This document shows, piece by piece, positions 2,277 to 59,091 of a stretch of DNA of 64,000 bases (the stretch's first letter is position 1; every line of letters starts with the position of its first letter). Origin of the DNA: an uncultured Chromatiales bacterium (GTDB lineage: Bacteria; Pseudomonadota; Gammaproteobacteria; S012-40); NCBI GenBank assembly GCA_964442745.1, contig CAYUAI010000005.1:44426-108425 (forward strand). The letters run 5' to 3'. A program made the translations under genes and the position numbers. The notes under the pieces were generated by a model. It was not told where the DNA came from. It saw only the letters and a program-made list of their open reading frames with translations, and made no database searches.

Positions 2277-2279
2277 GTC

Positions 2280-9635: not shown

Positions 9636-9651
9636 AGAACGGTAGAGAGGC

Positions 9652-15483: not shown

Positions 15484-15494
15484 TAAAAGATCAA

Positions 15495-16937
15495 CTATCC
15501 GTCAGCGATTCCTTCCAGATTTTTAATACGCACAATCATCTGACTGGTGGAACAACCCTCCATAAAATGCAATACTTTCACTTCACCACCATGCTTTATC
15601 ACACAATCATAACCGGCAATGTCTGCCACTTGATAATCCCCCCCTTTCACTAAAACATCGGGTTTAATTTGGCAAATCGGCGCTTCAGGCGTGTCATCAG
15701 AGAATGAAATCACCCAATCCACACTCGCTAAACCAGCAAGTACTGCCATACGCTGTGCTAATGGATTGATCGGCCGAGCGGCTCCTTTTAAGCGGGCGAC
15801 CGATGCATCATCATTGACAGCAACAATTAAACGATCACCTAGGCGCCTAGCTTGTTCCAAATAACTTACGTGGCCAGCATGTAAAATATCAAAACAGCCA
15901 TTGGTCATAACGATTTTTTCTTTCCGTCGATGCGCATCATGCACTGCCGCCATCAGCACCTCCAGACTGACCACACCTAAATCATGTTCTTGTTCCGCTT
16001 TCAGTGCTAAATTTAATTCCGAATACGTCACTACAGCGGTGCCCAATTTACCCACCACGATACCCGCTGCTACATTGGCTAATAAGGTAGCTTCCTCAAA
16101 AGACTTATCACCCGCGACTGACGCCGCTAATACCGAAATCACCGTATCACCGGCGCCAGTGACATCATAAACCTCTCGCGCCTGAGTCGGCAAATGCAAT
16201 ACTGGGCGCTGATGTTGGATCAGCGACATACCTTGCTCTCCGCGAGTGACTAACAATGCCTTTAACGAAAGTTTCTCTAATAATTGTTGGCCTTTTACTG
16301 CAATATCATGCTCAGTATTACAGACACCGACCACGGCTTCAAACTCTGAAAAATTGGGCGTAATCACACTGGCCTGCCGGTATTTTTCAAAGTCTTTGCC
16401 CTTCGGATCAACAAAAATTTTTTTATTCTGTGCATTAGCTAGAGCAATGAGTGGCTCTATATTTTGCAAGACACCCTTACCATAATCAGAAAAAATAATC
16501 ACCGCATAATCTGCCAATATTTCTGTGAATCGTTGGCTTAACAAAGCATCATGATAATGTTCAACTTGATTTTCAAAGTCCAGGCGAATCAGTTGTTGAT
16601 GGCGACTAATCACTCGCAGCTTAGTGATGGTTTTGCGATGTGATGATCGCACAAAATGGCATTTCACTTGCGCTGCTTCCAAAAGATTTTGCAAGGTATC
16701 TGCTGCCTCATCGTTTCCGACTCCACCAAGCAAATGGACATCCGCCCCTAATGAGGCAATATTTAATGCCACGTTGGCCGCGCCACCTGCCCGTGCTTCA
16801 ACCTCGCCAATGCCGACCACGGGCACGGGTGCTTCAGGAGAAATCCGCTTTGAATCGCCATACCAATAGCGATCCAACATAAGATCACCAACAACTAATA
16901 TACGACTTTTGGAAAACGTGTTTTTATCAATTAACAT
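15495..16937 (-). CDS. hldE: Bifunctional heptose-7-phosphate kinase / heptose-1-phosphate adenylyltransferase
   Basis: GDLMLDRYWYG..RISPEAPVPV, DVTGAGDTV, MTNGCFDILHAGHV, VKGGDY. Confidence 0.97.
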   Translation of the reverse strand: MLIDKNTFSKSRILVVGDLMLDRYWYGDSKRISPEAPVPVVGIGEVEARAGGAANVALNIASLGADVHLLGGVGNDEAADTLQNLLEAAQVKCHFVRSSHRKTITKLRVISRHQQLIRLDFENQVEHYHDALLSQRFTEILADYAVIIFSDYGKGVLQNIEPLIALANAQNKKIFVDPKGKDFEKYRQASVITPNFSEFEAVVGVCNTEHDIAVKGQQLLEKLSLKALLVTRGEQGMSLIQHQRPVLHLPTQAREVYDVTGAGDTVISVLAASVAGDKSFEEATLLANVAAGIVVGKLGTAVVTYSELNLALKAEQEHDLGVVSLEVLMAAVHDAHRRKEKIVMTNGCFDILHAGHVSYLEQARRLGDRLIVAVNDDASVARLKGAARPINPLAQRMAVLAGLASVDWVISFSDDTPEAPICQIKPDVLVKGGDYQVADIAGYDCVIKHGGEVKVLHFMEGCSTSQMIVRIKNLEGIADG

Positions 16938-17051
16938 ACAATTTTACGAATCTACCACTTGAATTAATTTCATGACAGAGGAATATAGCTAAATATTACC
17001 TGCAACGCACTTTGGCGATAAGTATAATATTTTGCTAGCAATTACGCTATA

Positions 17052-18104
17052 ATGACACCCGCCATCACCAATATAAATGAAAGATCACCTATGAAAATCT
17101 TAGTTGTCAGAGTGGGACGGGTTGGCGATATGATTATGTTAACCCCGGCTTTAGATGCTTTAATGGATGTCTTTCCCAATGCACAATTTTACCTGCTCAC
17201 TAGCCCGGAGGGTCGTCCTGTACTGAAAAATTATGATACTCGGTTAAAAGGTGAAATAATATACGACCGTCGCAAACTAATCGCCTTTATCGAACGTGCA
17301 CGAGTACGCAAGAAAATCATCAAGGGACAATTTGATTATATATTCTCTTTCCAAGCTAAAAAAAGTTTTGATCGTTTAATCACTATTCCCAATACTAAAG
17401 TACGTATCGTTGATGCCCAGCGACTCGGCGAACATTTCGCTCACAAATGCTTGCGACTGGTCAAGTCGTATCATCCAGCGTTAGACATTGAGTCCTATTA
17501 CGCCAGACTTCCTATTAGCCCTCTTGGTGAACAACAAGCCCTACAACAATTGCAACAGCTCAATGTGCATGATGCAACATTTTTAATCGGTCTGCATCCT
17601 TCTTTTAGTGGCCTGAGTCAACGTTTTTGGCGGGGCCAGCAAATGAAAAAAAACAAAATGTGGCCGGTACAATATTGGGGAGAAATCGGCAAACGTTTGT
17701 ATGAGTATGGCAAAGCTATCCACCAGGATATTCAAATCATCATGGATTTAGTGCCTGAAGACCAAAGGCTTGGTGAACAAATCGTGCAAGCTAGCCAGGG
17801 CTGCGTAAAACTACAAATTCCACCGCTGAATATGGAGCGTTATAAAGCCACATTGGCCCGTATGAATCTGCTAATTACCCCGGATACGGGACCCATGCAT
17901 ATCGCCGCCGCCATCGGCACCAATATCGTTGCGCTATTTGCCAACAAAGACCCCGCCGACTGCGGCCCGTATTGTCCTCAAAATCAATTTAAAGTACTTG
18001 AGGCCAAAACTTTTAGCAAAAATCAGTCAGAAATACGCTTAGCCGCGATCACTCCTGAGCTTGTATTTACGGCCTGCCAAGTGTTTTTGCCTGGTGAGAC
18101 ATAA
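17052..18104 (+). CDS. GT9 heptosyltransferase-family glycosyltransferase (likely start ATG17091)
   Basis: KILVVRVGRVGDMIMLTP, TPDTGPMHIAAAIG. Confidence 0.88.
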   Translation: MTPAITNINERSPMKILVVRVGRVGDMIMLTPALDALMDVFPNAQFYLLTSPEGRPVLKNYDTRLKGEIIYDRRKLIAFIERARVRKKIIKGQFDYIFSFQAKKSFDRLITIPNTKVRIVDAQRLGEHFAHKCLRLVKSYHPALDIESYYARLPISPLGEQQALQQLQQLNVHDATFLIGLHPSFSGLSQRFWRGQQMKKNKMWPVQYWGEIGKRLYEYGKAIHQDIQIIMDLVPEDQRLGEQIVQASQGCVKLQIPPLNMERYKATLARMNLLITPDTGPMHIAAAIGTNIVALFANKDPADCGPYCPQNQFKVLEAKTFSKNQSEIRLAAITPELVFTACQVFLPGET

Positions 18105-18109
18105 GTCCA

Positions 18110-19144
18110 ATGCATATCTGTCACATCAATTTGGCCAAAGGTTTTAGGGGCGGAGAACGCCAAACATTATTGCTCATCGAAGGACTGGCCAACAAAGGCA
18201 TTAAACAAACACTGATCTGTCGAAAAAATACTCCGATGGAAAACAAAGCAAAAATCATTCATCAGCTCACCACCATCGCCATTGGTAAGCCTTTTATATT
18301 ACATCGATTGAAATGTACCGACTTTGATCTTATGCACGCCCATGAAGGGCGCTCTTGTCACTTTACACACTTAAATCATTTGATTAGCTCAACGCCCTAC
18401 CTAATTACTCGCCGCATCCCCAACAAACCCAAACAAAACTTTATTACTCATCGTACCTACCGAAAGGCTAAATACATTATCACGTTATCTCAAGCTATCA
18501 AACACAACTTGCAACAGTATGATGATCAATTATCCATAGCGGTTATCCCCTCAATGTTTAGCAACTTATCCGTCAACCACAATCATGTCATACACCTTCA
18601 AAAAAAATATCAAGGGAAAACTATCATTGGACATATTGGGGCATTGGTCAATCATCATAAGGGTCAACAGACAATCATCGAAGCGGCAAAAAAACTACAA
18701 AACAGCCACCCACATGTACAATTTTTATTATTAGGGCAAGGTAAGGATGAACTTTGGTTAAAAAAACAAGCCGGTGGCCTAAGCAACATAAAATTTGTCG
18801 GTTTTATTGATAACGTTGGCGATTACATCAAGCTGTTCGATTTATTTGTGTTTCCCTCATGGGAAGAGGGATTAGGCTCCATTTTATTGGATATCATGCA
18901 ATTTCAAGTACCCATTATTGCCTCCAATGTGGATGGTATTCCTGACATTATTCAACCTAACTATAATGGCTTGCTAATCGAACCTAAAGCCACTGAACAG
19001 CTCACAAGATCCATCATTGAGTTATTGGAGAACTCAGCCTACGCTCATCAATTAGCATTAAATGCCAGCAAACATCTCAATAACTATTCGGTAGATAATA
19101 TTTCAGATCGCTATCTCACTATTTATCAACAGTTACTGCAATGA
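18110..19144 (+). CDS. GT4 glycosyltransferase
   Basis: GFRGGERQ, HKGQ, FVFPSWEEGLGSILLD, SNVDGIPDII. Confidence 0.9.
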   Translation: MHICHINLAKGFRGGERQTLLLIEGLANKGIKQTLICRKNTPMENKAKIIHQLTTIAIGKPFILHRLKCTDFDLMHAHEGRSCHFTHLNHLISSTPYLITRRIPNKPKQNFITHRTYRKAKYIITLSQAIKHNLQQYDDQLSIAVIPSMFSNLSVNHNHVIHLQKKYQGKTIIGHIGALVNHHKGQQTIIEAAKKLQNSHPHVQFLLLGQGKDELWLKKQAGGLSNIKFVGFIDNVGDYIKLFDLFVFPSWEEGLGSILLDIMQFQVPIIASNVDGIPDIIQPNYNGLLIEPKATEQLTRSIIELLENSAYAHQLALNASKHLNNYSVDNISDRYLTIYQQLLQ

Positions 19145-19147
19145 GTT

Positions 19148-19954
19148 TCACTCTTTATTATAACTTGCAGGTATATTGCTAATTCGCTGCAACTTTAATT
19201 TATCCAGTTCATAAATTTTTGCTTCCACTAAAAAAGCGGAAAAGGCGGAACTGACGGCAATAATAAAACCAGCTAAACCATCGAGAAAACCACGCTTTAC
19301 CAAATACAATTCAATAAACTTTGAGAGCGGTTTAAATAACATTCTAAACATGGAAAAGCGCTGTCCTTTTGCAAAACGGGTAAACGCCTTGATTGTCGAA
19401 AATTTATTGACCGTATTTATCTGATCAGATAAATCGACAAAGCTATAATGAATTAAATCTCCCTGTAGTGTGCTTGTGCTACCGTGCACAATTAAGGTAT
19501 CGTGCGGGTTCTCCCCTCCCCAAGTGGCTGTCCCGTTCCGTATTAAACGAAATCGGGCATTGGGATACCAGCCCGTGTGACGAATATATTTGTTTAAATG
19601 ATATGTCAAGCGCGGAAATTTTGCGCCATTGACTTTCGGCTCGCTGGCTAAAAATTCCTTGATAGTGTTTTGCAATTCTGGGCTCAGTCTTTCATCCGCA
19701 TCTAAAGATAGAATCCAGGCTCCCGAGCAATAGCTTAACGCCCGATTTTTTTGGGGAATGTGGCCATCAAAGGCATGTTGAAAAAACGTTACTTTAGCAA
19801 ACTGTTGACAAATTGACTGTGTTTGGTCGGTACTAAAAGAATCTAGTACAATGATTTCATCCGCCAAATCCACCACCGATGAAATACATGCATGAATATT
19901 TCTCTCTTCATTAAAGGTAATCACTGCCACTGATAATCGAGGTAATGCAGCCAT
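19148..19954 (-). CDS. GT2 glycosyltransferase (WaaE/KdtX-like)
   Basis: LSVAVITFNEERNI, DSFSTD, ILSLDADE, RGFLDGLAG. Confidence 0.9.
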   Translation of the reverse strand: MAALPRLSVAVITFNEERNIHACISSVVDLADEIIVLDSFSTDQTQSICQQFAKVTFFQHAFDGHIPQKNRALSYCSGAWILSLDADERLSPELQNTIKEFLASEPKVNGAKFPRLTYHLNKYIRHTGWYPNARFRLIRNGTATWGGENPHDTLIVHGSTSTLQGDLIHYSFVDLSDQINTVNKFSTIKAFTRFAKGQRFSMFRMLFKPLSKFIELYLVKRGFLDGLAGFIIAVSSAFSAFLVEAKIYELDKLKLQRISNIPASYNKE

Positions 19955-20004
19955 GGATATTTCCTTAAATTAACAAGCTTTATTACAACCAGCCATCCCC
20001 TGTG

Positions 20005-21312
20005 CTATGAGTACATTTTCCGCCAGCGACTTTTCAAACGGAAAAACAGAGTGGCCAGCTCAACAGACCTCGACGGTTGTTGTTTTGCCATATGATTAGC
20101 GATACTCGACATAAACACTAACAAAAAAATGAGATAGGCTTTCACCATAGCACTGCGCGACAACCAGCCTTCCGTCAAACCAAAAACAGCAAACCCAACA
20201 ACAATAATCAAACCTGAAAGCGAATAAAATCTAAGCGATGCCGTATTGCAAGCGTTCCAAAAAGAATAAAATATATAGAGTGGCACACAAAAAACACATA
20301 CCACTAACACAACCAGACCAAATAACCCTAAGGTAGCCAATGCATCAAAATATACACTATGTGCATGCCGATAGGGTTTGCTTAAATGTGAGATATTATC
20401 CGCAATTAATTCGGCACTATCCCCTGCAAAATCACCCAATCCTGTCCCAAAGATGGGGGATGCTTTCCAAATAGCGATACTGTCATTCCACATATTCATT
20501 CGTTCCCCCCACGATGATATGTGACTCGGATCTTCCAGGTGGGCTTTGAGTTCTTCAATTCCAATATTAATGTGCCGTTGCACCGGATTATTTAAACCCA
20601 CGGCTAAGCCACCAAAAATAACAACACTCGCGCTGATCGCAAGCAGCCAGTTACGCCGAGAAATACCATGCCGAAACAACCAAAGTAAACCAACCAAAGC
20701 AATCGGAAGCAACAGCCATGAGCCCCTAGTTTGCGATAACACACTGGCATATACAGCACTACAAACAGCGGCTATGCCAATCAAATAACACCACATTGGC
20801 TTTTCAAGGGTCAGCATCGCCGCGACGATAATCAACGCCAAAATCATCGCGATATCCCCAAAAATTATTTTGTGGTAGGCCCCTTCGGCGTAATCAGCCG
20901 TCAGCACATTAATTTCATAAAGTGCCTGTGCTAACAACACAAAACCCGCCACAACAGCCCCCAGCAAAAGCGTTTTCCCAGTCTCAATTTTTAATTCACG
21001 AAACAAAAGATAGATGGGAATGCAAAGTGGAAAGTATAAAAAACGCTCTAATTTGCTCACCCCTTCATGAAGGTTTTCCGTATTGATCAAAGAAATGCCA
21101 GCCATCAAGAATAAAAGTATAAACCCGAACAATAAATGCTTTTCCCATTTGTGCAAATTTTTCCAGGCCGGCCATCCCCAAATCACACCCAATACAATCA
21201 AAATGACAGCAATAATGCCCCCACTATTTTTCACTGTTGCCACAACAATGGGAAAGCAAAAGATTGAAATATGCACAATAAAATCTTTATAGTCAGGTAA
21301 TCGCTTTTTCAT
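20005..21312 (-). CDS. waaL: O-antigen ligase
   Basis: Multi-TM protein; SQTRGSW, SWGERMNMW, PIFGTG, HAHSVYF. Confidence 0.88.
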   Translation of the reverse strand: MKKRLPDYKDFIVHISIFCFPIVVATVKNSGGIIAVILIVLGVIWGWPAWKNLHKWEKHLLFGFILLFLMAGISLINTENLHEGVSKLERFLYFPLCIPIYLLFRELKIETGKTLLLGAVVAGFVLLAQALYEINVLTADYAEGAYHKIIFGDIAMILALIIVAAMLTLEKPMWCYLIGIAAVCSAVYASVLSQTRGSWLLLPIALVGLLWLFRHGISRRNWLLAISASVVIFGGLAVGLNNPVQRHINIGIEELKAHLEDPSHISSWGERMNMWNDSIAIWKASPIFGTGLGDFAGDSAELIADNISHLSKPYRHAHSVYFDALATLGLFGLVVLVVCVFCVPLYIFYSFWNACNTASLRFYSLSGLIIVVGFAVFGLTEGWLSRSAMVKAYLIFLLVFMSSIANHMAKQQPSRSVELATLFFRLKSRWRKMYS

Positions 21313-34441: not shown

Positions 34442-35050
34442 TTGCATAACAGTATGGAATGTTTTTTGGGAGCAAGAAACTGGGATCATCGGCCGTGGGC
34501 GACAAGTTATTATCCACATGATTTACCTGTTGAGTGGCAATTAGGTTTTTATTCCCATGAATATCGAACTGTGTTGGTATCGGCCAACAAATGGTGTATG
34601 GCAAATCGCAATAAGGCGGCTCAATGGTATAACGATGCTGGTGAGTCCTTCCAGCTTTTCTTAGAATTGCCTAAAAATAGCGCATTATTACCGTTTGTGT
34701 TTCAATTTTGTCACAGATTGCCTAACTGGCCGGCGGGTTTTGTGATGAATACGCCGATGGTTCACTCGGTGGGTTATCGAAATGTGCTAGGCAAAGCGAT
34801 CCGCAGACAATCAAGTGATATTCCTTTGATATTCTATCAAGTCGATGCCGCGAGCTTACAAAAAGATCTACAATTCAAAGGCGGATTGAGCCACATTCAG
34901 TTGTTTAGTGCGATGTCTTTTGATCGTGCAATAAATGAACGCGTTGTGTTGGTGTTGTTTTCTGCAGTTAGTGGTATGGATGTGGCAAAGCTCAATCGGG
35001 TGATTGAGTTTTGGTCGTTTATTTATCGGGTGTACAGCGTTGTTTTTTAA
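34442..35050 (+). CDS. DUF72-like protein, divergent/truncated
   Basis: GARNWDHRPW..YYPHDLPVEWQLGFYSHEYRTVLV resembles the DUF72 N-terminus; remainder not recognisable. Confidence 0.5.
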   Translation: MHNSMECFLGARNWDHRPWATSYYPHDLPVEWQLGFYSHEYRTVLVSANKWCMANRNKAAQWYNDAGESFQLFLELPKNSALLPFVFQFCHRLPNWPAGFVMNTPMVHSVGYRNVLGKAIRRQSSDIPLIFYQVDAASLQKDLQFKGGLSHIQLFSAMSFDRAINERVVLVLFSAVSGMDVAKLNRVIEFWSFIYRVYSVVF

Positions 35051-35280: not shown

Positions 35281-36111
35281 ATGTCAAATAATACGCATGC
35301 ACTGAGCAGTGACTCGTTGGTAGAAATTGAAGGGTTGAAATTTAGTCATGGGGAACGTGTCATTTTAGATGGTGTTGACATTAAAATACCTCGTGGCAAA
35401 GTAACGACTATAATGGGGCCGAGTGGCACAGGTAAGACCACATTGCTGCGTTTGATTAGTGCTCAGTTGACGGCCACCTCTGGGCAAGTGCGGGTGGATG
35501 GGCTTAATGTGGCGACCTTGAAGCGTCAGGCACTTTATGAGTTACGCAAGCGCATGGGCATGATGTTTCAAACCGGGGCTTTATTTTCTGACTTGACGGT
35601 GTTTGAAAATGTGGCTTTTCCACTCAGAGAGCATACCGATTTATCGTTGGCCATGATCCGCAGTATTGTATTGATGAAATTACAAGCGGTTGGTTTGCGA
35701 GGCGCACGGGATTTGATGCCCAATGAATTATCCGGTGGTATGGCAAGACGGGTGGCGTTGGCGAGGGCGATTGTGTTAGACCCGATGATGATTATGTATG
35801 ATGAGCCATTTACTGGGCAAGATCCGATTACTGTCGGGGTGGTGATGAAGTTGATTCGTTTCTTAAACGATAATCTTGGGTTAACCAGCATTTTAGTGTC
35901 GCATGATGTGCAGGAAGTATTGGCGATTTCTGATTATTTGTATGTCATTTCGGGTGGCAAAGTGGTGGAGCATGGCTCTCCAGAACAATTAAGGCAATCG
36001 GATTCCGTCTGGGTGCAACAGTTTTTGCGAGGCTTGCCTGACGGTCCGGCCGCCTTTCATTATCCTGCCAACGATTATCAAGCCGACTTATTGTCGGGAG
36101 CGCAGGTATGA
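35281..36111 (+). CDS. mlaF: Mla ABC transporter ATPase
   Basis: GPSGTGKT, LSGGMARRVALARA, MYDEPFTGQDP, GLPDGP..FHYPA. Confidence 0.96.
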   Translation: MSNNTHALSSDSLVEIEGLKFSHGERVILDGVDIKIPRGKVTTIMGPSGTGKTTLLRLISAQLTATSGQVRVDGLNVATLKRQALYELRKRMGMMFQTGALFSDLTVFENVAFPLREHTDLSLAMIRSIVLMKLQAVGLRGARDLMPNELSGGMARRVALARAIVLDPMMIMYDEPFTGQDPITVGVVMKLIRFLNDNLGLTSILVSHDVQEVLAISDYLYVISGGKVVEHGSPEQLRQSDSVWVQQFLRGLPDGPAAFHYPANDYQADLLSGAQV

Positions 36112-36890
36112 TGGGGGGGGTGCAGCGACTCGGCGCCAAGGCATTATTCTTTTTTGAGCGACTGGGTTGTGCTCATCTTTTCCTCGGTCGGGTACTGCTC
36201 GCTGTGCCCAGTTTATTTGGGCAGTTTCGATTGCTTGTGCAACAAATGCATTCGGTGGGCGTATTGTCATTGCAAATCATTGCCGTGTCGGGGCTGACGG
36301 TGGGGATGGTGCTTGGCTTACAGGGTTATCATACCTTGGTTGATTTTGGGGCGGAAGAGTCTTTAGGACAAGTCGTTGCGCTGTCTTTAGTCCGAGAGAT
36401 GGGGCCGGTACTCACGGCGCTATTATTTGCAGGGCGAGCGGGTTCTGCGATTACGGCTGAAATCGGTTTAATGAAAGTGACTGAACAATTATCGGCCATG
36501 GAGATGATGGCGGTGGACCCTTATCGCCGGGTTATCGCGCCTCGGTTTGTGGCTGGGGTAATTTCTATGCCTTTGCTGGCGGCCATTTTTAGTGCACTGG
36601 GGGTTTTGGGTGGCTATTTTGTGGGGGTTGGATTGCTCGGTGTGGATGGCGGTGCTTTTTGGTCGCAAATGCAGACCAAGGTGGATTTATTTGATGACAT
36701 TCTCAACGGTGTGATTAAGAGCATTATTTTTGGTGCGGTGGCGACTGGGATTGCGGTCTTTGAAGGGTATCATGCGGCGCCGACGACGGAAGGAGTGAGC
36801 CGTGCTACCACCCGAACGGTTGTTTATACCGCCTTTGCCATTTTAGGCTTGGATTTTATCTTAACTGCACTGATGTTTGGAGGCTTATAA
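36108..36890 (+). CDS. mlaE: Mla ABC transporter permease
   Basis: LVREMGPVLTALLFAGRAGSAITAEIGLMK, EGVSRATTRTVV. Confidence 0.96.
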   Translation: MMGGVQRLGAKALFFFERLGCAHLFLGRVLLAVPSLFGQFRLLVQQMHSVGVLSLQIIAVSGLTVGMVLGLQGYHTLVDFGAEESLGQVVALSLVREMGPVLTALLFAGRAGSAITAEIGLMKVTEQLSAMEMMAVDPYRRVIAPRFVAGVISMPLLAAIFSALGVLGGYFVGVGLLGVDGGAFWSQMQTKVDLFDDILNGVIKSIIFGAVATGIAVFEGYHAAPTTEGVSRATTRTVVYTAFAILGLDFILTALMFGGL

Positions 36891-36892
36891 GA

Positions 36893-37360
36893 ATGCAAAA
36901 ACAAAAGGTTGAGATTGCTGTTGGCATTTTTGTCGTGCTGGGCCTGGCAGCGCTTGTGATGCTAGCGATGAAAGTGAGCAATCTAAGTGCTTTATCGGGT
37001 AATGCGGGTTATTATTTGACAGCGCGATTTGATAATATTGGGGGCTTAAAAGTGCGTTCGCCGGTGAATATGGCGGGCGTGCGAATTGGCCAGGTTACGG
37101 CGATTCGTTTAGACCAAGCGACGTTTGAAGCGGTGGTGATGTTGCGGGTTTCTGAACAATTTAACCAGCTGCCGTTAGATACCAGCGCCAGTGTTTATAC
37201 GTCCGGTTTGCTCGGGGAGCAATATATTTCCTTAGAACCCGGTGGCGAAGAGACCTTTTTAGCCGATGGGGCAGAAATTAAAATAACCTCATCATCATTT
37301 GTTTTAGAGCAAGTGATTGGTGAAGTATTGTTCAGTAAAGCCGCCGGCGAAGATAAATAA
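36893..37360 (+). CDS. mlaD: MCE-domain protein
   Basis: FDNIGGLKVRSPV..AGVRIG, TSGLLGEQYI; single MCE domain. Confidence 0.96.
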   Translation: MQKQKVEIAVGIFVVLGLAALVMLAMKVSNLSALSGNAGYYLTARFDNIGGLKVRSPVNMAGVRIGQVTAIRLDQATFEAVVMLRVSEQFNQLPLDTSASVYTSGLLGEQYISLEPGGEETFLADGAEIKITSSSFVLEQVIGEVLFSKAAGEDK

Positions 37361-37522
37361 CGATGCAAAGGCCGTGTTGGTAGGGTCGTCTTCTCGTTGC
37401 TAAAATCAATCCGTGATTTTGGCATTGACAGGAGTCAATCGCTTGGGTAGTTAGTTTCGCTGACGCTAAGTGATGGTATTTTTCCATCAATTAAATCTTT
37501 CATTAGGACTTCGTTTTTTTAT

Positions 37523-38908
37523 ATGAGTATTTGGTTAAGGGCTAGCAAGATTTGGCCTAGGGTCGTTTTGGTTGGAAGTATTATTGGTTGTGTTGGGCTG
37601 GTTTCAGCTGAGACATTCACCTTAGAGCAAGCGATCGAAAGAGCACTTACTGCGGACCCGCGGGTCGAAGAAAAAGAGCATTTAGTGATGGCAGCGAAGG
37701 CATTATTACAAGAAGCGCAAGGTGGCGATGGCCTTAAAGTCGATGTTAATACCTTTTTAGGCATTTCTCCTGGAATTGATGGTGGGTTTTTTAAAGAAAG
37801 CTGCGTTGGTGAGCTTAACAAATGTGTCAGAGATGATCGTTTTACCTTAGAAGATGGCATATCGCCATGGTTTTACTTTAAACTGTCACTCATTAAACCC
37901 TTGTTTACTTTTGGTAAAATAGAAAATTACAGTGATGCAGCGAATGCCAATATTGCGATTAAAAAAGCGGAGGTACGCTTGCAACGCTCAGAAATCATTC
38001 TCGACACTAAAAAAGCGTATTTTGGTCATTTGACAGCCAAGGATAGTCGTCTATTTTTGCAGGATATTCAACAGCGGATTGATAATGCTTTGCAGTTGGT
38101 CATGGATTGGCTGGATGGCGGGGACGGTGATGTGAAAGTGTCCGATCGTTATGCCCTTGAATCAGCCAGCGCCTTGGCCAGCAAGTTTATTTCTCAAGCG
38201 CAGGGTTTAGAGCAGGTGAGTTTGAGTGGCCTAAAAGTTGTTACCGGTATCGGCTTAGACAATGCGCTTAGCTTGGCTGACGAACATTTAAAGCCGGTGA
38301 CGTTGCCGAGTGAGACGTTGCCGGTATTGCAAGCGCGTGCCGCCCAAATGCGCCCAGAAATTAGTCAATTAAACGCGGGCTTGGAAGCGCGGCGGGCACT
38401 AGTGGCGGCCAATAAAGCGATGATTAAACCGAATATTTATGCAGGGATTGTCGGGATGCTGTCGTATTCCTATGGCCGGGACCCCATTGATAACCCGCAT
38501 ATTTCTGACCCATTTAATGACTATGGTGTTACTCCTTTGGTGGGTATGCAGTGGAGTTGGGAGACAGGTCGGCAGCCAGCGAAAGTCGCTCAGGCACAGG
38601 CTGAGCTCAGCGCTTTGATAGCGAAGTCTTCGTTTGCGCGGGAAGGGATTGCGTTTCAAGTGGCGGAGCAATTTAACCAAATGCATGCGTATTATGATTC
38701 CGTGCAGAGTTTGCGCAAGAGTGCCAAGGCGGCACGCCGTTGGATGATTAGTAGTTATACTGATTTTAGTGCGGGGATTGAAAAAGTAGATGGTGTGATT
38801 ACAGCCTTTCAAGCTTATGTTTTAGCCTATACTGAATATCTGCGAACGGTGTTTGAATACAATATGTATGTGGCACGACTGGAACATGTGACGGGAGCGT
38901 ATCAATGA
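37523..38908 (+). CDS. TolC-family outer membrane efflux protein embedded in the mla operon
   Basis: Signal peptide, FTLEQAIERAL, PLFTFGKI, RPEISQL, two OEP-like helical repeats, ARLEHVTG end. Confidence 0.85.
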   Translation: MSIWLRASKIWPRVVLVGSIIGCVGLVSAETFTLEQAIERALTADPRVEEKEHLVMAAKALLQEAQGGDGLKVDVNTFLGISPGIDGGFFKESCVGELNKCVRDDRFTLEDGISPWFYFKLSLIKPLFTFGKIENYSDAANANIAIKKAEVRLQRSEIILDTKKAYFGHLTAKDSRLFLQDIQQRIDNALQLVMDWLDGGDGDVKVSDRYALESASALASKFISQAQGLEQVSLSGLKVVTGIGLDNALSLADEHLKPVTLPSETLPVLQARAAQMRPEISQLNAGLEARRALVAANKAMIKPNIYAGIVGMLSYSYGRDPIDNPHISDPFNDYGVTPLVGMQWSWETGRQPAKVAQAQAELSALIAKSSFAREGIAFQVAEQFNQMHAYYDSVQSLRKSAKAARRWMISSYTDFSAGIEKVDGVITAFQAYVLAYTEYLRTVFEYNMYVARLEHVTGAYQ

Positions 38909-39516
38909 AGAATTATATTAAATGCTGGGTATTCTTGTTGCTGGTTGTTTTTTGTTTAGGCGCGCAGGCGAGTCGGCAGTCGCCGCAAGATCTGATTGAG
39001 TCAACAGCCAATCAGGTGCTAAAAAAACTGTCGAGTGAAAAGGCTTTGATATCTAAGGAGCCCGGTCGGGTTTATGACCTGGTGAATGAGTTTATTTTGC
39101 CGCATTTTGATTTTGAGCGGATGTCAAAATCGGTATTGGGGAAATATTGGCGCCGTACAACAACCGAACAGAAAACCCGTTTTATTGAAGAATTCAGAAC
39201 GCTATTAGTGAGAACTTATGCCACTTCATTGGCCGAGTATACCAACAATAAAATTAGTTATTTACCTTTTCGGGATGATGTGTCCAGTGGTGATGTGACC
39301 GTTCGGTCTGAAATTGATCAGCCTGGCGGGTTTCCCATCCCGATTAACTATCGTTTGAAAAAAAACGGAGATACCTGGAAGGTTTATGATGTGACCATTG
39401 ATGATATCAGTTTAGTGGCGAACTATCGCTCTTCTTTTTCCAAAGAAATTCGTAAGGCTGGCCTTGATAAGTTGATTAGTACGCTGACTCACAGAAATAA
39501 GCAACATGCGCCATGA
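38905..39516 (+). CDS. mlaC: Periplasmic phospholipid shuttle
   Basis: ILPHFDFERMS..VLGKYWR, FRTLLVRTY, WKVYDV..ISLVANYRSSF. Confidence 0.95.
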   Translation: MKNYIKCWVFLLLVVFCLGAQASRQSPQDLIESTANQVLKKLSSEKALISKEPGRVYDLVNEFILPHFDFERMSKSVLGKYWRRTTTEQKTRFIEEFRTLLVRTYATSLAEYTNNKISYLPFRDDVSSGDVTVRSEIDQPGGFPIPINYRLKKNGDTWKVYDVTIDDISLVANYRSSFSKEIRKAGLDKLISTLTHRNKQHAP

Positions 39517-39803
39517 GTCAGGTAAATTTCGCTCAAGTTAGGACAGGCGCTTATAGCATTGAAGGTCAATTGACCTATTCAACAGTATCAAGTGTGGTGA
39601 ACAAAGGGTTAGTTGCTTTTGATCAGTCCGCGAAATGTCAAATTGATTTAGCCGGTGTGACACAGGCCGATAGCGCTGGTTTGTCGCTTATCGTAGAATG
39701 GGTCAAATATGCAAAATCGAACAATATCACCTTGGATTTTGTCAATGTACCCGAGCAGATGAAAGCTTTGTCCAAAGTGAATGGTTTGGAGTTCATGATT
39801 TAA
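39513..39803 (+). CDS. mlaB: STAS-domain subunit
   Basis: IDLAGVTQADSAGLSLIVEW; position after mlaC. Confidence 0.9.
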   Translation: MSQVNFAQVRTGAYSIEGQLTYSTVSSVVNKGLVAFDQSAKCQIDLAGVTQADSAGLSLIVEWVKYAKSNNITLDFVNVPEQMKALSKVNGLEFMI

Positions 39804-39883: not shown

Positions 39884-40141
39884 ATGAATTCCGATGAAAT
39901 AAAAGCGCTAATAGAAGCGGGCATAGCGGGTGCGCAAATTTATATTTCTGGGGATGGTTGTAATGTCAAGGTTGTGGTGATTAGCGATGAGTTTGAAGGC
40001 AAATCTTTGATTGTACAGCAGCGCATGGTATACGATTGCCTTGGTGATAAAATAACGAGCGGTATCATTCATGCGCTCTCCATCAAGTCTTATACTCCGA
40101 TGCAATGGGAGGCGGTGCCGAATAAAGACGAGATTGTTTAG
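39884..40141 (+). CDS. ibaG: BolA/IbaG family protein
   Basis: GDGC..VISDEFEGKS..QQRMVY..IHALSIK; between mlaB and murA. Confidence 0.9.
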   Translation: MNSDEIKALIEAGIAGAQIYISGDGCNVKVVVISDEFEGKSLIVQQRMVYDCLGDKITSGIIHALSIKSYTPMQWEAVPNKDEIV

Positions 40142-40244
40142 CCCGGATCATTAAATCATTTCCGAGCATTCCAATTTGGGTGATATCTCGTTGTACCTCA
40201 ACAACAATGGCACTGTTGTTTTTACGCATTTGTTATTTTTATAA

Positions 40245-41564
<1,320 letters not shown>

Positions 41565-53313: not shown

Positions 53314-55536
53314 ATGGCTATGAATAGCGTAAAAGTTAATCGTAGAAAATTTTTAAAAATGTTAGGCTGGGGTGGTGCTGGCACAGCGTTAGCTGGCTGT
53401 GATTTGCCCACGACAGTGACCTTGGAAGAAGGTAAAGAGGAAGTTGTTGCCTACGTATTGCCGGAAGAATATGTGATTCCTGGTATTGGCGTCTGGTATG
53501 CTTCAACGTGTATCCAATGTGCTGCCGGCTGTGGTTTGCATGGGCGCGTGCGGGAAGGTCGGGTGCTCAAGGTAGAAGGCCATCCTGATTCACCGATCAA
53601 TCATGGTAAAACGTGCATGATGGGGCAAGCGGGAGTGCAAGCACACTATAATCCGGATCGGATTACGTCGCCGATGATGCGCAAAGCCGGTCGTATGCAA
53701 GCGGTATCCTGGGATGAGGCGCTGGCTGAAATCAACAAAAAGATTGGTGCGGACTCAGACTTGAAAGGCGAGCGGTTTGCTTGGTTTACTGGCAGCGTGA
53801 GTGGGCATCAGGCGGTATTGGTTTCAGACTTAGCCAAGCAATTGGGTGCTGGCGATCACTATGCCCACGAAATGATACACTCAACCGTTTGGCAATCCGT
53901 ATGTCAAGAGATGTTAGGTGATTCAATGCCGCGGCTTCGCTTTGATAAAGCACAAGTTGTTTTATCTTTTGGTGCGGACTTTTTAGGCACTTGGGTTTCA
54001 CCTGTTCACTTTTCGGGAGAATACGCAAAATTTCGATCGGGCGATCGTGGTGTTTTAATCCAAGTCGAACCTAAGATGACGCTCACTGGCGGCAATGCCG
54101 ACCTATGGATGCCTGCCAAGCCGGGGACGGAAGGTGTTTTAGCTTATGGTCTGGCTAATTTTATCATTGACCGTGGTTGGAATAAGGTTCATGTGCCCGA
54201 TGTCATTCGACAATCTTTAGCGCAATATAATGTTGATGCCGTCAGTGAAATAACTGAAATTCCGGTATCGAAAATTAAGCGCATCGCCAGTTTCTTAACG
54301 GAAAGAGCGCCGAGTTTGATCTTGGCCGGCGCGTCAACAGAAGGGCATGAAAATGGTTTTGATGCCGTCTCTGCGGTGATGTTGCTGAATATTATTATGG
54401 GCAACATTGGTGAGACCATCGAACCAGGTAATCACTTTCCTGAAGCGAGTTTGCATGCCAAGCCAGGTAACACCAAGAGCGTTATTGATTTTGCCAAGGC
54501 CGTGAGTGAAAAAGCCTATGACGTGGTTTTCTTTTATGGCAGCAATCCGGTGTTTACCGCGCCGAAAACGCTGGGTCTTAGTGATAGCTTAGAGACGGTT
54601 CCCTTTAAGGTTGCATTTGCTCAGTTTCCTGATGAAACCACCATGAAAGCCGATGTGATTTTACCGATTTTTTCTAACATGGAAGATTGGGGTTCGCATG
54701 TGGCGGCGTATCAGGCGAATGAGACGATCATAAGTTTACAGCAGCCGTTGATGGAGCCACTTTATAAGGAAACCCGAGGTTTTGGTGATGTGATCTTGAG
54801 TCTTCTGCAGATGCGCGATAAGGAATATGGTAATTTCAAAGATTACTATGCGTATTTAGTCGCGGCAATGACCAATATGCCTGGGGCTGATGTGGCTGAT
54901 ACGCCAAGAGCGAAGCAAGATTACTGGGAGAATGTATTGCAGCATGGGCAAGTGAAAGTATCGCCGATGCAAAACAAGTTACGGCCGAAAATGCTAGTGG
55001 CAAATTTGAAGGCATCGTCAGATACCGGTGAATATAGTATGCATTTAGCGCCTTCGGCACGCCTGGGACTTTGGGATGGGCGGCACGCCAATCTTCCTTG
55101 GTTACAGGAAGCGCCAGACCAAATTAGCAAAGTGGTGTGGGGTTCTTGGGCAGAGTTGCATCCGAGTACCGCCGGTAAGTTGGGTGTGAAGAACGGTGAT
55201 TACGTGATGATATCATCAGAGAATGGCTCGATTGAAACGCAAGTTTATGTGCATAAAGGGATTCGTCAGGATGTGGTTTCCGTGCCCATGGGGCAGGGCC
55301 ATGAGGAATACGGGCGTTATGCGAAAAATCGGGGTGTGAGCCCTTTTACCATACTCTCAGCAAAAACCGAGCAAAAAACCGGAGAGCTGGCGTTATATGC
55401 CACCAAGGTGAAAGTAGCTAAGGTTAGGAAATCTGAAGTATTGGTGAAAATGGGAGGGAGTGAAACCCAGCTGGGACGTAAACTGGTTCAGACGGTTTCT
55501 GCTGACAGTTTGCGGCGTAGCGAAGGGGAGGTGTAA
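53314..55536 (+). CDS. actB1: ACIII subunit B1, molybdopterin-oxidoreductase-like; predicted Tat lipoprotein
   Basis: NRRKFLK Tat motif + LAGC lipobox; CIQCAAGC...C; GADFLGTW; DGRHANLPWLQEAPD signature of ActB. Confidence 0.88.
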   Translation: MAMNSVKVNRRKFLKMLGWGGAGTALAGCDLPTTVTLEEGKEEVVAYVLPEEYVIPGIGVWYASTCIQCAAGCGLHGRVREGRVLKVEGHPDSPINHGKTCMMGQAGVQAHYNPDRITSPMMRKAGRMQAVSWDEALAEINKKIGADSDLKGERFAWFTGSVSGHQAVLVSDLAKQLGAGDHYAHEMIHSTVWQSVCQEMLGDSMPRLRFDKAQVVLSFGADFLGTWVSPVHFSGEYAKFRSGDRGVLIQVEPKMTLTGGNADLWMPAKPGTEGVLAYGLANFIIDRGWNKVHVPDVIRQSLAQYNVDAVSEITEIPVSKIKRIASFLTERAPSLILAGASTEGHENGFDAVSAVMLLNIIMGNIGETIEPGNHFPEASLHAKPGNTKSVIDFAKAVSEKAYDVVFFYGSNPVFTAPKTLGLSDSLETVPFKVAFAQFPDETTMKADVILPIFSNMEDWGSHVAAYQANETIISLQQPLMEPLYKETRGFGDVILSLLQMRDKEYGNFKDYYAYLVAAMTNMPGADVADTPRAKQDYWENVLQHGQVKVSPMQNKLRPKMLVANLKASSDTGEYSMHLAPSARLGLWDGRHANLPWLQEAPDQISKVVWGSWAELHPSTAGKLGVKNGDYVMISSENGSIETQVYVHKGIRQDVVSVPMGQGHEEYGRYAKNRGVSPFTILSAKTEQKTGELALYATKVKVAKVRKSEVLVKMGGSETQLGRKLVQTVSADSLRRSEGEV

Positions 55537-55538
55537 CA

Positions 55539-56384
55539 ATGTCTTTTAAAAATATTATAGAGAACTTTTCGCATTACCGTAGAGATGCTGAGGACGGTGG
55601 TCATCACGATTATGAGCATCGCTGGGGGATGGCTATTGATCTTAATCTGTGTACTGGCTGTAATGCGTGTTCGACGGCGTGTTATGCGGAAAATAATTTG
55701 GCCGTGGTTGGTAAAGAGCGCTTTGAAAAAGGTCAGGCGATGCACTGGATGCGCATTGAGCGTTATTGGGATGAGCATAGTGATAGTGATTATCCCGAGC
55801 AGGGTGCGCAATTTTTGCCAATGATGTGTCAACAATGTGGTGCGGCGACTTGCGAACCTGTTTGTCCCGTGGCGGCGACCTATCATACGCCTGATGGGTT
55901 GAATGCACAGGTTTATAATCGCTGTATCGGGTCTCGTTATTGTAGTAATAACTGTCCTTTCCGGGTTCGCTATTTTAATTTCTGGTCGTATTATGAAGAT
56001 TCATGGCCAGAGCCTCTGGAGCAGCAGTTAAACCCTGATTTGTCGGTACGCGACAAAGGTGTGATGGAAAAATGCACTTTCTGCATTCAGCGAATTCGCG
56101 TGGCAAAAGATAAAGCGGGACGGGAGGATCGCTTGCTCTCCGATGGTGAGTTCTCGACAGCGTGTGCTCAGGCCTGCCCAACCAGTGCGATTACCTTTGG
56201 CGATACCATGGATCCTACCAGTCAGGTGAGCCAGGCTTGGAAAAAGCATCAAGTGGCGCGTGGTCCTTATACACAAAAGAAAGAGAAAGATGACGCCGAG
56301 TTGCGTGGGTATCGCATTTTTGAAGAATTAAATGTGGATCCCTCCGTGATGTATTTGGAGCGTATACGAGAAACTGAAGTATAA
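55539..56384 (+). CDS. actB2: ACIII subunit B2, iron-sulfur protein (three [4Fe-4S] + one [3Fe-4S] pattern)
   Basis: WGMAIDLNLCTGCNACSTACYAENN, CQQC..CEPVCP, RCIGSRYCSNNCP, GVMEKCTFC, TACAQACP. Confidence 0.92.
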   Translation: MSFKNIIENFSHYRRDAEDGGHHDYEHRWGMAIDLNLCTGCNACSTACYAENNLAVVGKERFEKGQAMHWMRIERYWDEHSDSDYPEQGAQFLPMMCQQCGAATCEPVCPVAATYHTPDGLNAQVYNRCIGSRYCSNNCPFRVRYFNFWSYYEDSWPEPLEQQLNPDLSVRDKGVMEKCTFCIQRIRVAKDKAGREDRLLSDGEFSTACAQACPTSAITFGDTMDPTSQVSQAWKKHQVARGPYTQKKEKDDAELRGYRIFEELNVDPSVMYLERIRETEV

Positions 56385-56513
56385 GCCGGCGATCAAAATT
56401 ATTTTAACATTGACTCGCCTATTTCCCGCCCTTTGGCGTGACAGCTTCGCTGTGCCTTGAAGGGCAAAAAATAGGCTTCGCAAATTTTGTTACAATAATT
56501 TTAGGCTCGCTTA
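56382..56513. repeat. 132-bp imperfect palindrome (MITE-like) between actB2 and actC
   Basis: Nested arms taagc..aaaattatt.taaca / tgtta.aataatttt..gctta; gcctattt / aaataggc; gccctt / aagggc; acagc / gctgt. Confidence 0.75.
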
Positions 56514-56563
56514 CTTAGTTTGAGTGTTTAGGGCATGGGTTAGATAAACAGATAGGGAACACC

Positions 56564-57994
56564 ATGAGTCTCGATAATGAAAAAGATATAAACGAAAACC
56601 TGAAATGGTCTCGGATTAATGAGGACATTCTTCGTTCAATGGAGAATCCTCGCCGAGCCTATTGGGTCACTTTTATTGTTTGTTCGGCAATGTTTGCATG
56701 TGCCATTGCTGCGGAAATTTATCAGTACAGATATGGGATGGGAAGCGCCAATTTAAATAACCCACACATGTGGGATATGTATATTGCGACCTTCGTATTT
56801 TGGATTGGTATGAGCCATGCGGGCACCTTGTTGTCAGCCATTTTGCATATTATCAACGCCCAATGGCGTAAGCCCATCTATCGCTTTGCAGAAGCCATGA
56901 CGACATTCTCGTTGATGACGGCGGGTTTCTTCCCGATGATCCATTTGGGTCGGGTATGGAATCTCTATTGGGTGCTTCCTTATGTGAGTGATCGTGGAAT
57001 CTGGCCGAATTTTCGCTCACCGTTGGTGTGGGACGCCTTCGCGATCAGTACTTATCTGTCAGCATCAGCATTATTCTTGTTCATTGGCATGATTCCTGAT
57101 TTAGCGATTGCTCGTGATCATGGTCGGGGATGGCGCAAGAAAGTCTATGGCATTCTGTCCTTAGGGTGGCGTGGTGATGATCGTCAATGGCGAAATTTCC
57201 GTAAAACCTATTTGCTGATGGCGTGTTTTTTGATTCCATTAGCGATCTCGGTGCATTCCATCGTATCCTCCGATTTTGCGATGTCCATTATGCCGGGCTG
57301 GCATATTACAACCTTTCCTCCTTACTTTGTGGCTGGCGCCTTATATTCAGGTTGTGCGGCGATCATGACGCTCTTCATTTGTTTGCGATATTTTTTCCGC
57401 ATGGAAGAATACATGACCCTGTCGATCATGGAAAAAACATGTAAGTTGACGTTTGCAATTGCCATGGTTTGGACATACCTCAACCTGGTTGAATTTGCAG
57501 CCACTTGGTATGGCCATAATATGTATGACAAAGAGTTGTTAATTGCTAAAGCAGTCGGGCCATACTCGTTTATTTTCTGGACGATGCTATTTTGTGGGGT
57601 CGTTGCGCCGTTTGCGCTGTGCTTCAGGAAACTGAGGCGGCACATGCCAAGTATGTTTGTGTTATCGATTGTCTTGCAGGTCGGTATGTTTGTTGAGCGA
57701 TGGATGATTGTTGCTCCGACACTCGCAATGTCACATCAACCGTTTCAGCATGATGTGATGTGGGGGAGTGTCATTGAATGGGCGATTGTGTTTGGTAGTT
57801 TTGGTTGGTTTGGTATCTTGTTCCTCGTGTTTGTGAAGATCTTTCCATGTGTATCAATGTATGAAGTGAAAGAGCTGGTTTATCACATTAAGCGTGAAAG
57901 CGAAGCGGAAGAGCAAGCTGAAAAAAGTAAAAGTACCAAAACAGCGACGGGTGAAGACAAACCCACCGGTTCACCTGGAATGGAGGGAGCGTAA
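56564..57994 (+). CDS. actC: ACIII subunit C (NrfD/PsrC-family quinol-binding membrane subunit)
   Basis: FVFWIGMSHAGTLLSAIL, RFAEAMT, IHLGRVW, NFRSPLVWDAFAISTY, VHSIVSSDFA, FPPYFVAGA. Confidence 0.94.
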   Translation: MSLDNEKDINENLKWSRINEDILRSMENPRRAYWVTFIVCSAMFACAIAAEIYQYRYGMGSANLNNPHMWDMYIATFVFWIGMSHAGTLLSAILHIINAQWRKPIYRFAEAMTTFSLMTAGFFPMIHLGRVWNLYWVLPYVSDRGIWPNFRSPLVWDAFAISTYLSASALFLFIGMIPDLAIARDHGRGWRKKVYGILSLGWRGDDRQWRNFRKTYLLMACFLIPLAISVHSIVSSDFAMSIMPGWHITTFPPYFVAGALYSGCAAIMTLFICLRYFFRMEEYMTLSIMEKTCKLTFAIAMVWTYLNLVEFAATWYGHNMYDKELLIAKAVGPYSFIFWTMLFCGVVAPFALCFRKLRRHMPSMFVLSIVLQVGMFVERWMIVAPTLAMSHQPFQHDVMWGSVIEWAIVFGSFGWFGILFLVFVKIFPCVSMYEVKELVYHIKRESEAEEQAEKSKSTKTATGEDKPTGSPGMEGA

Positions 57995-58524
57995 TGAGTG
58001 AGCGTAATGTGCTTGCCATGTTTGATAATTTCGATGATGCGATTGATGTCATTAACGGAATAAAAAAACATGAGGTAGCGGGTGTTGATATTGACGATGT
58101 GACAGTTTTATCACCGATTGAACATCCCGATATTGATGACATTCTCGAAGGACGGCCGGTGAATATTCAGAAATTTACCTTTGCCGGTGCCTTGTTTGGT
58201 CTATCGTTCGGGTTTTTATTTCTGGCTTCTGCGCAGGCCAGCTTTCTGGTGCAGCCGCAAGGAGGTAAGCCTGTTATTCCATTGCCTACCAACTTTGTCT
58301 TGATGTATGAAATGCTGATTTTCTTTGCGGTGTGGACCACGGTTATCACATTTACCGTGATGGCGGGTTTATTTAAATCGCGAGGCAATTTATATACAGA
58401 GCGATTGACGGTGGATGGCGTCGGGATCTTGATCGAAGGGCTCGATGAAAGCAAACTAGGCCCCTTGAAAAGCTACTTCAAGGATAATAAGGCCATCGAA
58501 ATTCGAGAAGAGAAAGCAAAATGA
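57994..58524 (+). CDS. actD: ACIII subunit D (DUF3341)
   Basis: VLAMFD, LSPI, two TM helices flanking GGKP, YEMLIFF; position after actC. Confidence 0.85.
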   Translation: MSERNVLAMFDNFDDAIDVINGIKKHEVAGVDIDDVTVLSPIEHPDIDDILEGRPVNIQKFTFAGALFGLSFGFLFLASAQASFLVQPQGGKPVIPLPTNFVLMYEMLIFFAVWTTVITFTVMAGLFKSRGNLYTERLTVDGVGILIEGLDESKLGPLKSYFKDNKAIEIREEKAK

Positions 58525-59069: not shown

Positions 59070-59091
59070 TTAACAAAGGGTAGGAATTAAT

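Follow-up and report, generated by a model that had tools for sequence, protein, structure and literature searches.

A gene for a TolC-fold outer-membrane factor (OMF) was found between mlaD and mlaC in the mla operon of an uncultured Chromatiales bacterium. The operon lies in a stretch of 64,000 nucleotides, referred to below as the window (GenBank assembly GCA_964442745.1, contig CAYUAI010000005.1, positions 44,426 to 108,425). The gene product has a predicted TolC fold, is encoded together with MlaD and MlaC with signs of translational coupling to both, and occurs mostly in genomes without MlaA. We consider it probable, from sequence comparisons and structure models, that the OMF is a dedicated outer-membrane partner of the Mla system and its MlaC shuttle, and that it takes the place of MlaA. 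The way in which phospholipids get into or out of the outer membrane is still debated, and to our knowledge MlaA with its porin is the only known outer-membrane end of the MlaC shuttle.

The mla operon and its outer-membrane factor

The genes of the operon lie on the forward strand in the order mlaF-mlaE-mlaD-OMF-mlaC-mlaB and are followed by a BolA/IbaG-like gene, murA, hisG, and hisD. mlaF (35281..36111) encodes an ABC ATPase of 276 residues (PF00005, 6e-30; NF008809 for MlaF, 5e-116 and 386.7 bits, below the cut-off of 441), and its stop codon is overlapped by the start of mlaE (36108..36890), which encodes a permease of 260 residues (PF02405, 1.4e-74; NF033619, 4e-120 and 400 bits, above the cut-off of 315). 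The product of mlaD (36893..37360) is a short protein of 155 residues with a single MCE domain (PF02470, 5e-22; TIGR04430, 4.5e-53 and 179 bits, above the cut-off of 135). A spacer of 162 nt (37361..37522), whose length is atypical for this operon type, separates mlaD from the OMF gene (37523..38908), which encodes 461 residues (P0001; PF02321, 9.1e-27). The TGA stop codon of the OMF gene and the ATG start codon of mlaC share the sequence ATGA. mlaC (38905..39516) encodes the periplasmic lipid carrier of 203 residues (PF05494, 5.3e-59), whose signal peptide ends, by inspection, in AQA before a serine. The last gene of the operon, mlaB (39513..39803), encodes a STAS protein of 96 residues (PF13466, 1.9e-12; NF033618, 31 bits, below the cut-off). 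Thus, MlaF, MlaE, MlaD, MlaC, and MlaB were all identified together by the Pfam and NCBIfam scans. Because the ibaG/bolA-like gene and murA lie downstream (39884..41564; PF01722, 8e-15; TIGR01072 for MurA, 611 bits), we take this to be the housekeeping locus mlaFEDCB-ibaG-murA, as in Escherichia coli, with one extra gene.

Pfam scans of the window were performed with 15 and 43 open reading frames (ORFs), the second set consisting of ORFs of at least 110 residues with E values of 1e-10 or lower. No HlyD-type membrane-fusion protein (MFP), RND pump, efflux-type ABC gene, or MlaA was found in the operon or the window, and the Mla-embedded OMF accordingly lacks there the MFP and inner-membrane pump that are usually encoded alongside members of the OMF family, TolC proper being an orphan gene. 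A preliminary description of this DNA, made from its sequence alone, had given the same gene order, the overlap between the TolC stop and the mlaC start, and the lack of an MFP/RND partner and of mlaA in the window. The ORF listing and the profile scans bore out all of these points, the overlap being located at 38905-38908 and the PF04333 (MlaA) matches lying only on other contigs. In the mlaD-OMF spacer, promoter-like and terminator-like matches were at chance level, no terminator-like site was found, and the z-score of the RNA fold was −1.95.

The OMF contains two tandem OEP repeats, matched by PF02321 in two stretches, and both halves were also recovered in a six-frame search of the genome. 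PF02321 was its sole Pfam match, and the MlaA profile PF04333 did not match it; its function may resemble that of MlaA, but the OMF falls outside the MlaA family. Its scores on the NCBIfam models of TolC (TIGR01844, 51.9 bits against a cut-off of 225.15) and NodT (TIGR01845, 18.5 bits against 210.05) were far below the thresholds. An AlphaFold2 model of the protomer, built from a 59-row alignment, had a predicted local distance difference test (pLDDT) score of 93 and a predicted template modelling (pTM) score of 0.85. It shows strands at residues 72-83, 113-128, 304-316, and 333-343 and helices at residues 132-199, 206-241, 350-416, and 422-457, which form two long helical hairpins. In Foldseek comparisons, the model aligned over its full length to TolC, ST50, OprN, CusC, and OprM with E values of about 1e-18 to 1e-14, template modelling scores of 0.71-0.84, and sequence identities of 14-18%. 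A sequence search of the PDB with a profile of 15 orthologues gave weak matches only, the best being CusC (E value, 3e-5), with SilC reaching up to 3e-4. On the basis of the model, the 461-residue protein is a real but remote and divergent TolC-fold OMF.

Two predicted surface loops of the OMF stand out. The first (residues 84-112, 37772..37858) comprises 29 residues between the model strands 72-83 and 113-128 and carries Cys94 and Cys101 in the sequence SCVGELNKC. By TolC topology, this loop is presumably extracellular. Loop 1 has exactly two cysteines in 43 of 66 orthologues, none in the remaining 23, and never one, and these cysteines are the only ones of the mature OMF. A number of either two or zero is what a disulfide would produce, and the pattern fits one that is specific to certain lineages. 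The position of the loop in the model and the cysteine pattern agree with the probable surface location that the preliminary description had given to this pair. The second predicted loop (residues 317-332, 38471..38518), with the pattern R..NP...DPFN, is unusually conserved, with a mean top-residue frequency of 0.79 compared with 0.65 for the mature OMF. The surface loops of efflux OMFs usually vary.

The N-terminus of the OMF (37523-37612) contains the sequence SIIGC..VSA before a glutamate, in which IIGC could pass as a lipobox. This cysteine is not conserved in the orthologues, which show plain sites of the signal-peptidase-I type. The sequence IKPLxTFGK was dropped as a candidate for a special motif of this OMF, since it is taken to be the usual strand-to-helix motif of OEP proteins.

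Distribution of the OMF and MlaA

Public relatives were sought in one genome per species. A scan with the single OMF protein sequence found no relative, whereas a scan with an alignment-based profile found 281. Among the best 80 of these 281 loci, mlaD was located upstream in 79 and mlaC downstream in 79, and the OMF gene was beside one or both of them in all 80; no mlaA was present within 4 kb in any of the 80. In the GTDB family of the window genome, an orthologue with 44-57% identity was found in 14 of the 15 other genomes, with mlaC downstream in 14 of 14 loci and mlaD detected upstream in 13. In addition, 401 genomes sampled evenly across the class were examined, and those with a profile match at an E value of 1e-60 or lower were counted as OMF-positive. 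The OMF was present in 41 of the 401 genomes, from about 24 families. Twenty-six of these, chosen to cover the families, were checked, and mlaD and/or mlaC adjoined the OMF gene in every one: 22 had the order mlaD-OMF-mlaC, three were cut by a contig end, and one had OMF-mlaC without mlaFED upstream. In a sample of the phylum, three genomes of other classes carried OMFs of about 31% identity in the order mlaF-E-D-OMF-mlaC. Carriers among the relatives are labelled Sulfuriferula, Sulfuricella, Thiobacillus, Sideroxydans, Candidatus Tenderia, and many gammaproteobacterial metagenome-assembled genomes. The counts of mlaD-tolC-mlaC genomes called for by the preliminary description therefore showed the arrangement to be conserved.

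The spacing of the genes was similarly constant. In 89 loci, the OMF stop codon overlapped the mlaC start codon by 4 nt in 48 cases and by 1 nt in 17, and the two lay no more than 20 nt apart in 71. The mlaD and OMF genes overlapped or were separated by 20 nt or less in 85 of 92 related loci, to which the 162-nt spacer of the window is an exception. This spacing speaks for translational coupling on both sides of the OMF gene. Furthermore, two split operons (L013 in genome G008 and L157 in genome G337) contained an OMF-mlaC pair without mlaFED in the fetched flank. A break in the operon leaves the OMF gene with mlaC and not with mlaFED.

The occurrence of MlaA, scored as a PF04333 match, was examined in the same 401 genomes, and the cross-table was counted by eye. 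PF04333 was found in 332 genomes. MlaA was present in 5 of the 41 OMF-positive genomes compared with 327 of the 360 OMF-negative genomes (three of the latter, G160, G314, and G326, are flagged as unpublished), and it was not found in 36 of 41 and 33 of 360, respectively; these counts ignore kinship, and related genomes are not independent. When only genomes that were at least 90% complete were considered, the corresponding values were 5 of 36 and 289 of 313. A nearer sample gave a similar picture, with MlaA in 1 of 15 genomes of the same family compared with 22 of 25 in other families. No MlaA was found in five further OMF carriers reached through their loci, one of which is a complete chromosome, nor in the three OMF carriers of other classes. 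Two families (f49 and f182) provide a contrast among close relatives: their MlaA-positive members have a plain mlaE-D-C-B-ibaG-murA at this locus, whereas sister genera with the OMF lack MlaA. These results indicate that the OMF and MlaA largely exclude each other.

Links to MlaC and competing readings

Three lines of evidence link the OMF to MlaC in particular. A protein of 677 residues from the wider OMF family (P0052) is a natural fusion: its OMF part (residues 31-448) is followed by a Pro/Gly-rich linker, which contains no signal peptide, and then by an MlaC domain (residues 509-672). In genome G003, a second OMF of 446 residues follows genes for an MMPL/RND transporter of 811 residues and an MlaC-like protein of 224 residues (L128:5219-9575); this OMF is 27% identical to that of the window, is paralogous to it, and is encoded with a different inner-membrane engine. 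In the hopanoid clusters described in the available part of a preprint, it is the MlaA-like lipoprotein HpnS that is proposed at the place after the MlaC-like gene (PMC12324291).

Finally, a complex of one OMF protomer (residues 30-461) with MlaC (residues 23-203) was modelled with custom alignments. The median ipSAE was 0.62 (0.65, 0.62, and 0.62 in three runs), and the best of three controls reached 0.01. Of 157 solved complexes, 116 attained a value of 0.62, as did 2 of 215 mismatched pairs; because a single protomer and custom alignments were used, these counts hold only roughly for this model. At least 88% of the contacts were common to the runs, and the pLDDT of the partner was at least 80. 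The modelled contacts on the OMF involve residues 174-203, 255, 398-419, and 436, that is, the lower halves of the two long helices, both hairpin turns, and one equatorial residue. They include lower helix H3 with the first hairpin turn (residues 174-203, 38042..38131) and lower helix H7 with the second turn (residues 398-419, 38714..38779), in which R405 and G418 are invariant and R406, D414, and A417 nearly so. By TolC topology, the contact region is the outside of the lower barrel, at which MFPs bind ordinary OMFs. The contact residues predicted on MlaC were more conserved than the rest of that protein (0.75 compared with 0.60). A model of the OMF trimer with MlaC or MlaD had been suggested in the preliminary description; the OMF-MlaC interface passed its controls, with one protomer in place of the trimer.

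Based on these data, the following mechanism may be proposed. The OMF trimer would sit in the outer membrane, where homotrimers of the OMF family make up a 12-stranded barrel, with its helical barrel reaching into the periplasm. Soluble MlaC would dock on the outside of the lower barrel and the hairpin tips, at the place used by the fusion proteins of ordinary OMFs, and would act as the lipid ferry linking the OMF to MlaFEDB in the inner membrane, whose MlaD is short. The surface loops, which are conserved and in many lineages stapled by a putative disulfide, would form the lipid-facing end at the outer leaflet.

Several points weigh against the assignment of the OMF as the partner of MlaC in place of MlaA. 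All of its support is comparative or modelled. The tunnel of TolC is water-filled in known members, which makes an awkward path for phospholipids. The modelled contact residues of the OMF were no more conserved than the rest of the protein (0.62 compared with 0.65), and no OMF-specific signature was found in MlaC, whose contact residues were the same in three MlaC proteins from MlaA-type operons. To these are added the kinship of the counted genomes and the single-protomer form of the complex model, as mentioned above. Five genomes of the class sample contain both the OMF and MlaA (G000, which is the window genome, and G136, G159, G259, and G294); in the two of them that were examined, a single MlaC adjoined the OMF, and a stand-alone mlaA was located elsewhere. 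Among five genomes with neither the OMF nor MlaA, four were dropped as counter-examples, since MlaC was absent from them too. The fifth (G105, locus L140) has the order mlaF-E-D-C-murA and is 100% complete by markers in 300 contigs; either its assembly missed one of the two genes, or it has a third kind of partner.

The presence of mlaA in the window genome is a further point on the same side; the condition of its locus counts in favour of the assignment. This genome encodes MlaA, with PF04333 matches of 172.8 and 62.7 bits at two contig ends (C66:1-451 and C117:1-864; loci L002 and L001), and the contig of one public sequencing run, which may be the source, joins both halves into an intact mlaA. 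The starts of the two contigs share 55 identical bases, beyond which one of them continues for 50 nt in a sequence found at the ends of contigs C43, C80, C156, and C166 as well. In three of the four runs compared (X2, X3, and X6), the contig with the 5' half of mlaA continues into a multicopy repeat of about 1.4 kb, although contigs cannot show that an intact allele is absent from these runs. The contigs of the public runs include a record of 1383 nt with about 19-fold higher depth that ends in the sequence shared by these contig ends. Directly downstream of mlaA is a broken mlaC, consisting of an ORF of 64 residues with a signal peptide and a following frame of 53 residues that matches PF05494 positions 118-150. 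From its sequence, the locus has the look of a relic, and an interrupted mlaA seems to occur in at least some natural variants. Since mlaA is still encoded in this genome, two outer-membrane partners may coexist in it; alternatively, mlaA may be on its way out. A second Mla cluster with the order mlaD-mlaA-mlaC was observed in genome G271 (L127), and its MlaA is 58% identical to the mlaA fragment of the window genome. This identity suggests that mlaA and the broken mlaC are what is left of a cluster of that type.

The window genome contains only two MCE genes, namely the mlaD of the window and one in a separate cluster, and the window operon is its only MlaC-bearing system. The separate cluster (L120:4157-7707, contig C14) encodes a STAS-MlaE fusion of 387 residues, an ABC ATPase, an MCE protein of 314 residues, and an auxiliary lipoprotein (PF03886). 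It resembles the Mla-Pqi chimeric type described for Brucella, as far as the available part of that report goes (PMC12436622).

The preliminary description had proposed a hybrid lipid-trafficking system in which an OMF replaces or supplements MlaA and exchanges cargo with MlaC or MlaD, and had named a canonical MlaA in the genome as a finding that would speak against it. As regards MlaA and MlaC, the idea is supported by the conservation of the arrangement, the anti-correlation with MlaA, the fusion, and the MlaC model. In the window genome itself, however, the OMF at most supplements MlaA, because MlaA is encoded there. A canonical MlaA is thus present in this genome, but its neighbour is a decayed mlaC and its junction with a repeat is polymorphic, and 36 of the 41 OMF-positive genomes have none.

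The position of the OMF gene between mlaD and mlaC could also be read as a continuous bridge, in which the six hairpin tips of the OMF trimer dock on the MlaD hexamer, as TolC does on the MacA hexamer, to give a conduit across the envelope, and MlaC is an accessory or loading factor instead of a ferry. The spacing of mlaD and the OMF gene (85 of 92 loci at 20 nt or less, or overlapping) is as tight as that of the OMF gene and mlaC; the threefold symmetry of the OMF and the sixfold symmetry of MlaD match, as in the MlaFEDB and MacAB-TolC structures; and conservation is high at G202, D414, A417, and G418 in the hairpin turns. However, MlaD is short in the relatives (149-172 residues in 76 of 77, with one partial) and has no helical extension, and TolC on a short MCE ring would not span a periplasm of the size of that of E. 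coli. Moreover, MlaC is kept in every complete locus, the split operons keep the OMF with mlaC, and the fusion is likewise with MlaC, and we regard such a bridge as rather unlikely. A different cargo or direction with the same partners, for instance the export of an envelope lipid such as a hopanoid from the inner membrane to the outer membrane or across it, instead of the retrieval of misplaced phospholipid, appears about equally improbable. For the window MlaC, the HpnM model (TIGR03481) gives 106.8 bits, more than the 86.7 bits of the model for E. coli-type MlaC, both below the cut-offs; in G003, the paralogous OMF goes together with an MlaC-like gene and an HpnN-type MMPL/RND transporter; every known system uses its OMF as an exit duct; and many carriers are labelled as sulfur- or iron-oxidising lithotrophs. 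On the other hand, the operon stands at the housekeeping mlaFEDCB-ibaG-murA locus as the only MlaC-bearing system of the genome, and the loss of MlaA in carriers argues that the OMF covers the job of MlaA.

It is also conceivable that the OMF is an ordinary duct for efflux or type I secretion, co-transcribed with mla for envelope maintenance and served by MFP-dependent pumps encoded elsewhere. The full TolC fold would suit this role, and E. coli TolC is itself an orphan gene product serving many pumps. In the Negativicutes, tolC follows mlaEFD, and no functional link is shown in the available part of the report on them (PMC10665443). A hitch-hiking duct of this kind would not, however, predict the loss of MlaA or the fusion with MlaC; the OMF recurs beside an MlaC-like gene in an unrelated transporter cluster in G003, its complex model with MlaC is far above the controls, and it lies far under the NCBIfam cut-offs for TolC and NodT. 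The window genome carries nine other OMF genes, six of which are accompanied by genes for both HlyD-type MFPs and RND or ABC pumps. A seventh, at a contig end, has an RND gene next to it, and the other two are orphans. One orphan adjoins pcm, which we take to be the usual place of the housekeeping TolC. With seven of the nine having MFP or pump neighbours and this classic orphan in addition, the genome has no need of the Mla-embedded OMF as an efflux duct. Nothing was found among these genes for a pairing of the OMF with a separate pump, which the preliminary description had named as a contrary outcome, and an efflux duct is, in our judgement, quite unlikely.

Beyond the role of the OMF as the partner of MlaC in place of MlaA, a wider proposal may be offered, which we put forward tentatively and hold to be nearly an even chance. 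An entire branch of the TolC superfamily might consist of lipid-pathway outer-membrane proteins instead of exit ducts for drugs or proteins, with a soluble MlaC-type carrier in the docking place of fusion proteins that links them to MlaFEDB or to HpnN-like MMPL/RND transporters. This module would have taken over from MlaA-type lipoproteins in roughly one tenth of the class genomes sampled, and in other classes too.

Known systems and neighbouring genes

In the E. coli Mla system (MlaFEDB, MlaC, and MlaA-OmpC/F), as here, the genes for MlaF, MlaE, MlaD, MlaC, and MlaB stand at the same locus upstream of ibaG-murA, the MlaD protein is short, and MlaC is a soluble protein made with a signal peptide. 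The operon described here differs from it in the TolC-fold gene between mlaD and mlaC, in the lack of MlaA in most carriers (36 of 41), and in an OMF that is not homologous to MlaA, as judged from the missing PF04333 match. The OMF shares the protomer fold and a Sec-type signal peptide with those of the tripartite pumps (AcrAB-TolC and MacAB-TolC; TC 1.B.17). In contrast to them, it has no MFP in the operon or window, is only 14-18% identical to solved OMFs, has a surface loop among its most conserved parts, and has MlaC as the modelled partner at the tips.

A cluster mlaEFD-tolC-tamB has been described for the Negativicutes, which have neither MlaA nor MlaC (Grasekamp et al. 2023, PMC10665443). 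In the part of that report available to us, a long MlaD, comprising a helical region and a beta-barrel at its C-terminus, is proposed to bridge the envelope alone, and TolC is used as a marker of the outer membrane, to which no part in lipid transport is assigned (PMC10665443). To that extent, both cases have a tolC homologue directly after mlaD in organisms without MlaA. Unlike the Negativicutes type, however, the operon of the window encodes an MlaD of 155 residues, contains an mlaC that is coupled to the OMF gene, and has no tamB downstream. In the HpnN-HpnM-HpnS proposal, the MlaA-like lipoprotein HpnS is the outer-membrane partner (bioRxiv 2025, PMC12324291). As far as the available text of this preprint describes it, the likeness is that genes for a lipid transporter of the inner membrane, a periplasmic carrier resembling MlaC, and a partner in the outer membrane occur together. 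The difference, within the same limit, is that G003 holds an OMF after the MlaC-like gene and that the inner-membrane engine of the window is MlaFEDB.

In the literature searched, neither a proteobacterial mlaFED-OMF-mlaCB operon nor an OMF acting as a partner of MlaC was found to be described. As far as can be told, the arrangement is real and conserved and apparently undescribed in print. The anti-correlation with MlaA, the contrasts within families, the controlled complex model, and the state of mlaA in the window genome are new. If the assignment of the OMF as the MlaC partner is true, MlaA is not universal in MlaC-using bacteria, and OMFs gain a function outside efflux and secretion. It would also explain the MlaC-bearing proteobacteria without MlaA in surveys of Mla that score MlaA by Pfam, and would provide a second, structurally unrelated system in which direction and mechanism could be put to the test. 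Since carriers are available in culture (Sulfuriferula and, by its label, Thiobacillus), the prediction lends itself to direct testing.

The remainder of the window contains lipopolysaccharide (LPS)-core genes, his genes, tatC, a gene for a DegP-like protease, and genes of an alternative complex III. An ORF of 202 residues with a TTG start (34442-35050), located upstream of mlaF, had no Pfam or NCBIfam match and may not be a gene. The region resembling alternative complex III (53314-60129) encodes a molybdopterin-oxidoreductase-like subunit, a 4Fe-4S protein, and NrfD-like and ActD proteins, together with two ORFs to which no family was assigned. Upstream of the operon, the same contig carries a large region of LPS-core and lipid A genes (1596-21312), which includes genes for a PagL-like deacylase, three GT9 heptosyltransferase-like proteins, a Kdo transferase, an O-antigen ligase-like protein, a sulfatase-family protein that is possibly EptA-like, and an HldE-like kinase/adenylyltransferase. 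A phosphoribulokinase gene at 2865-3734 hints at autotrophy.

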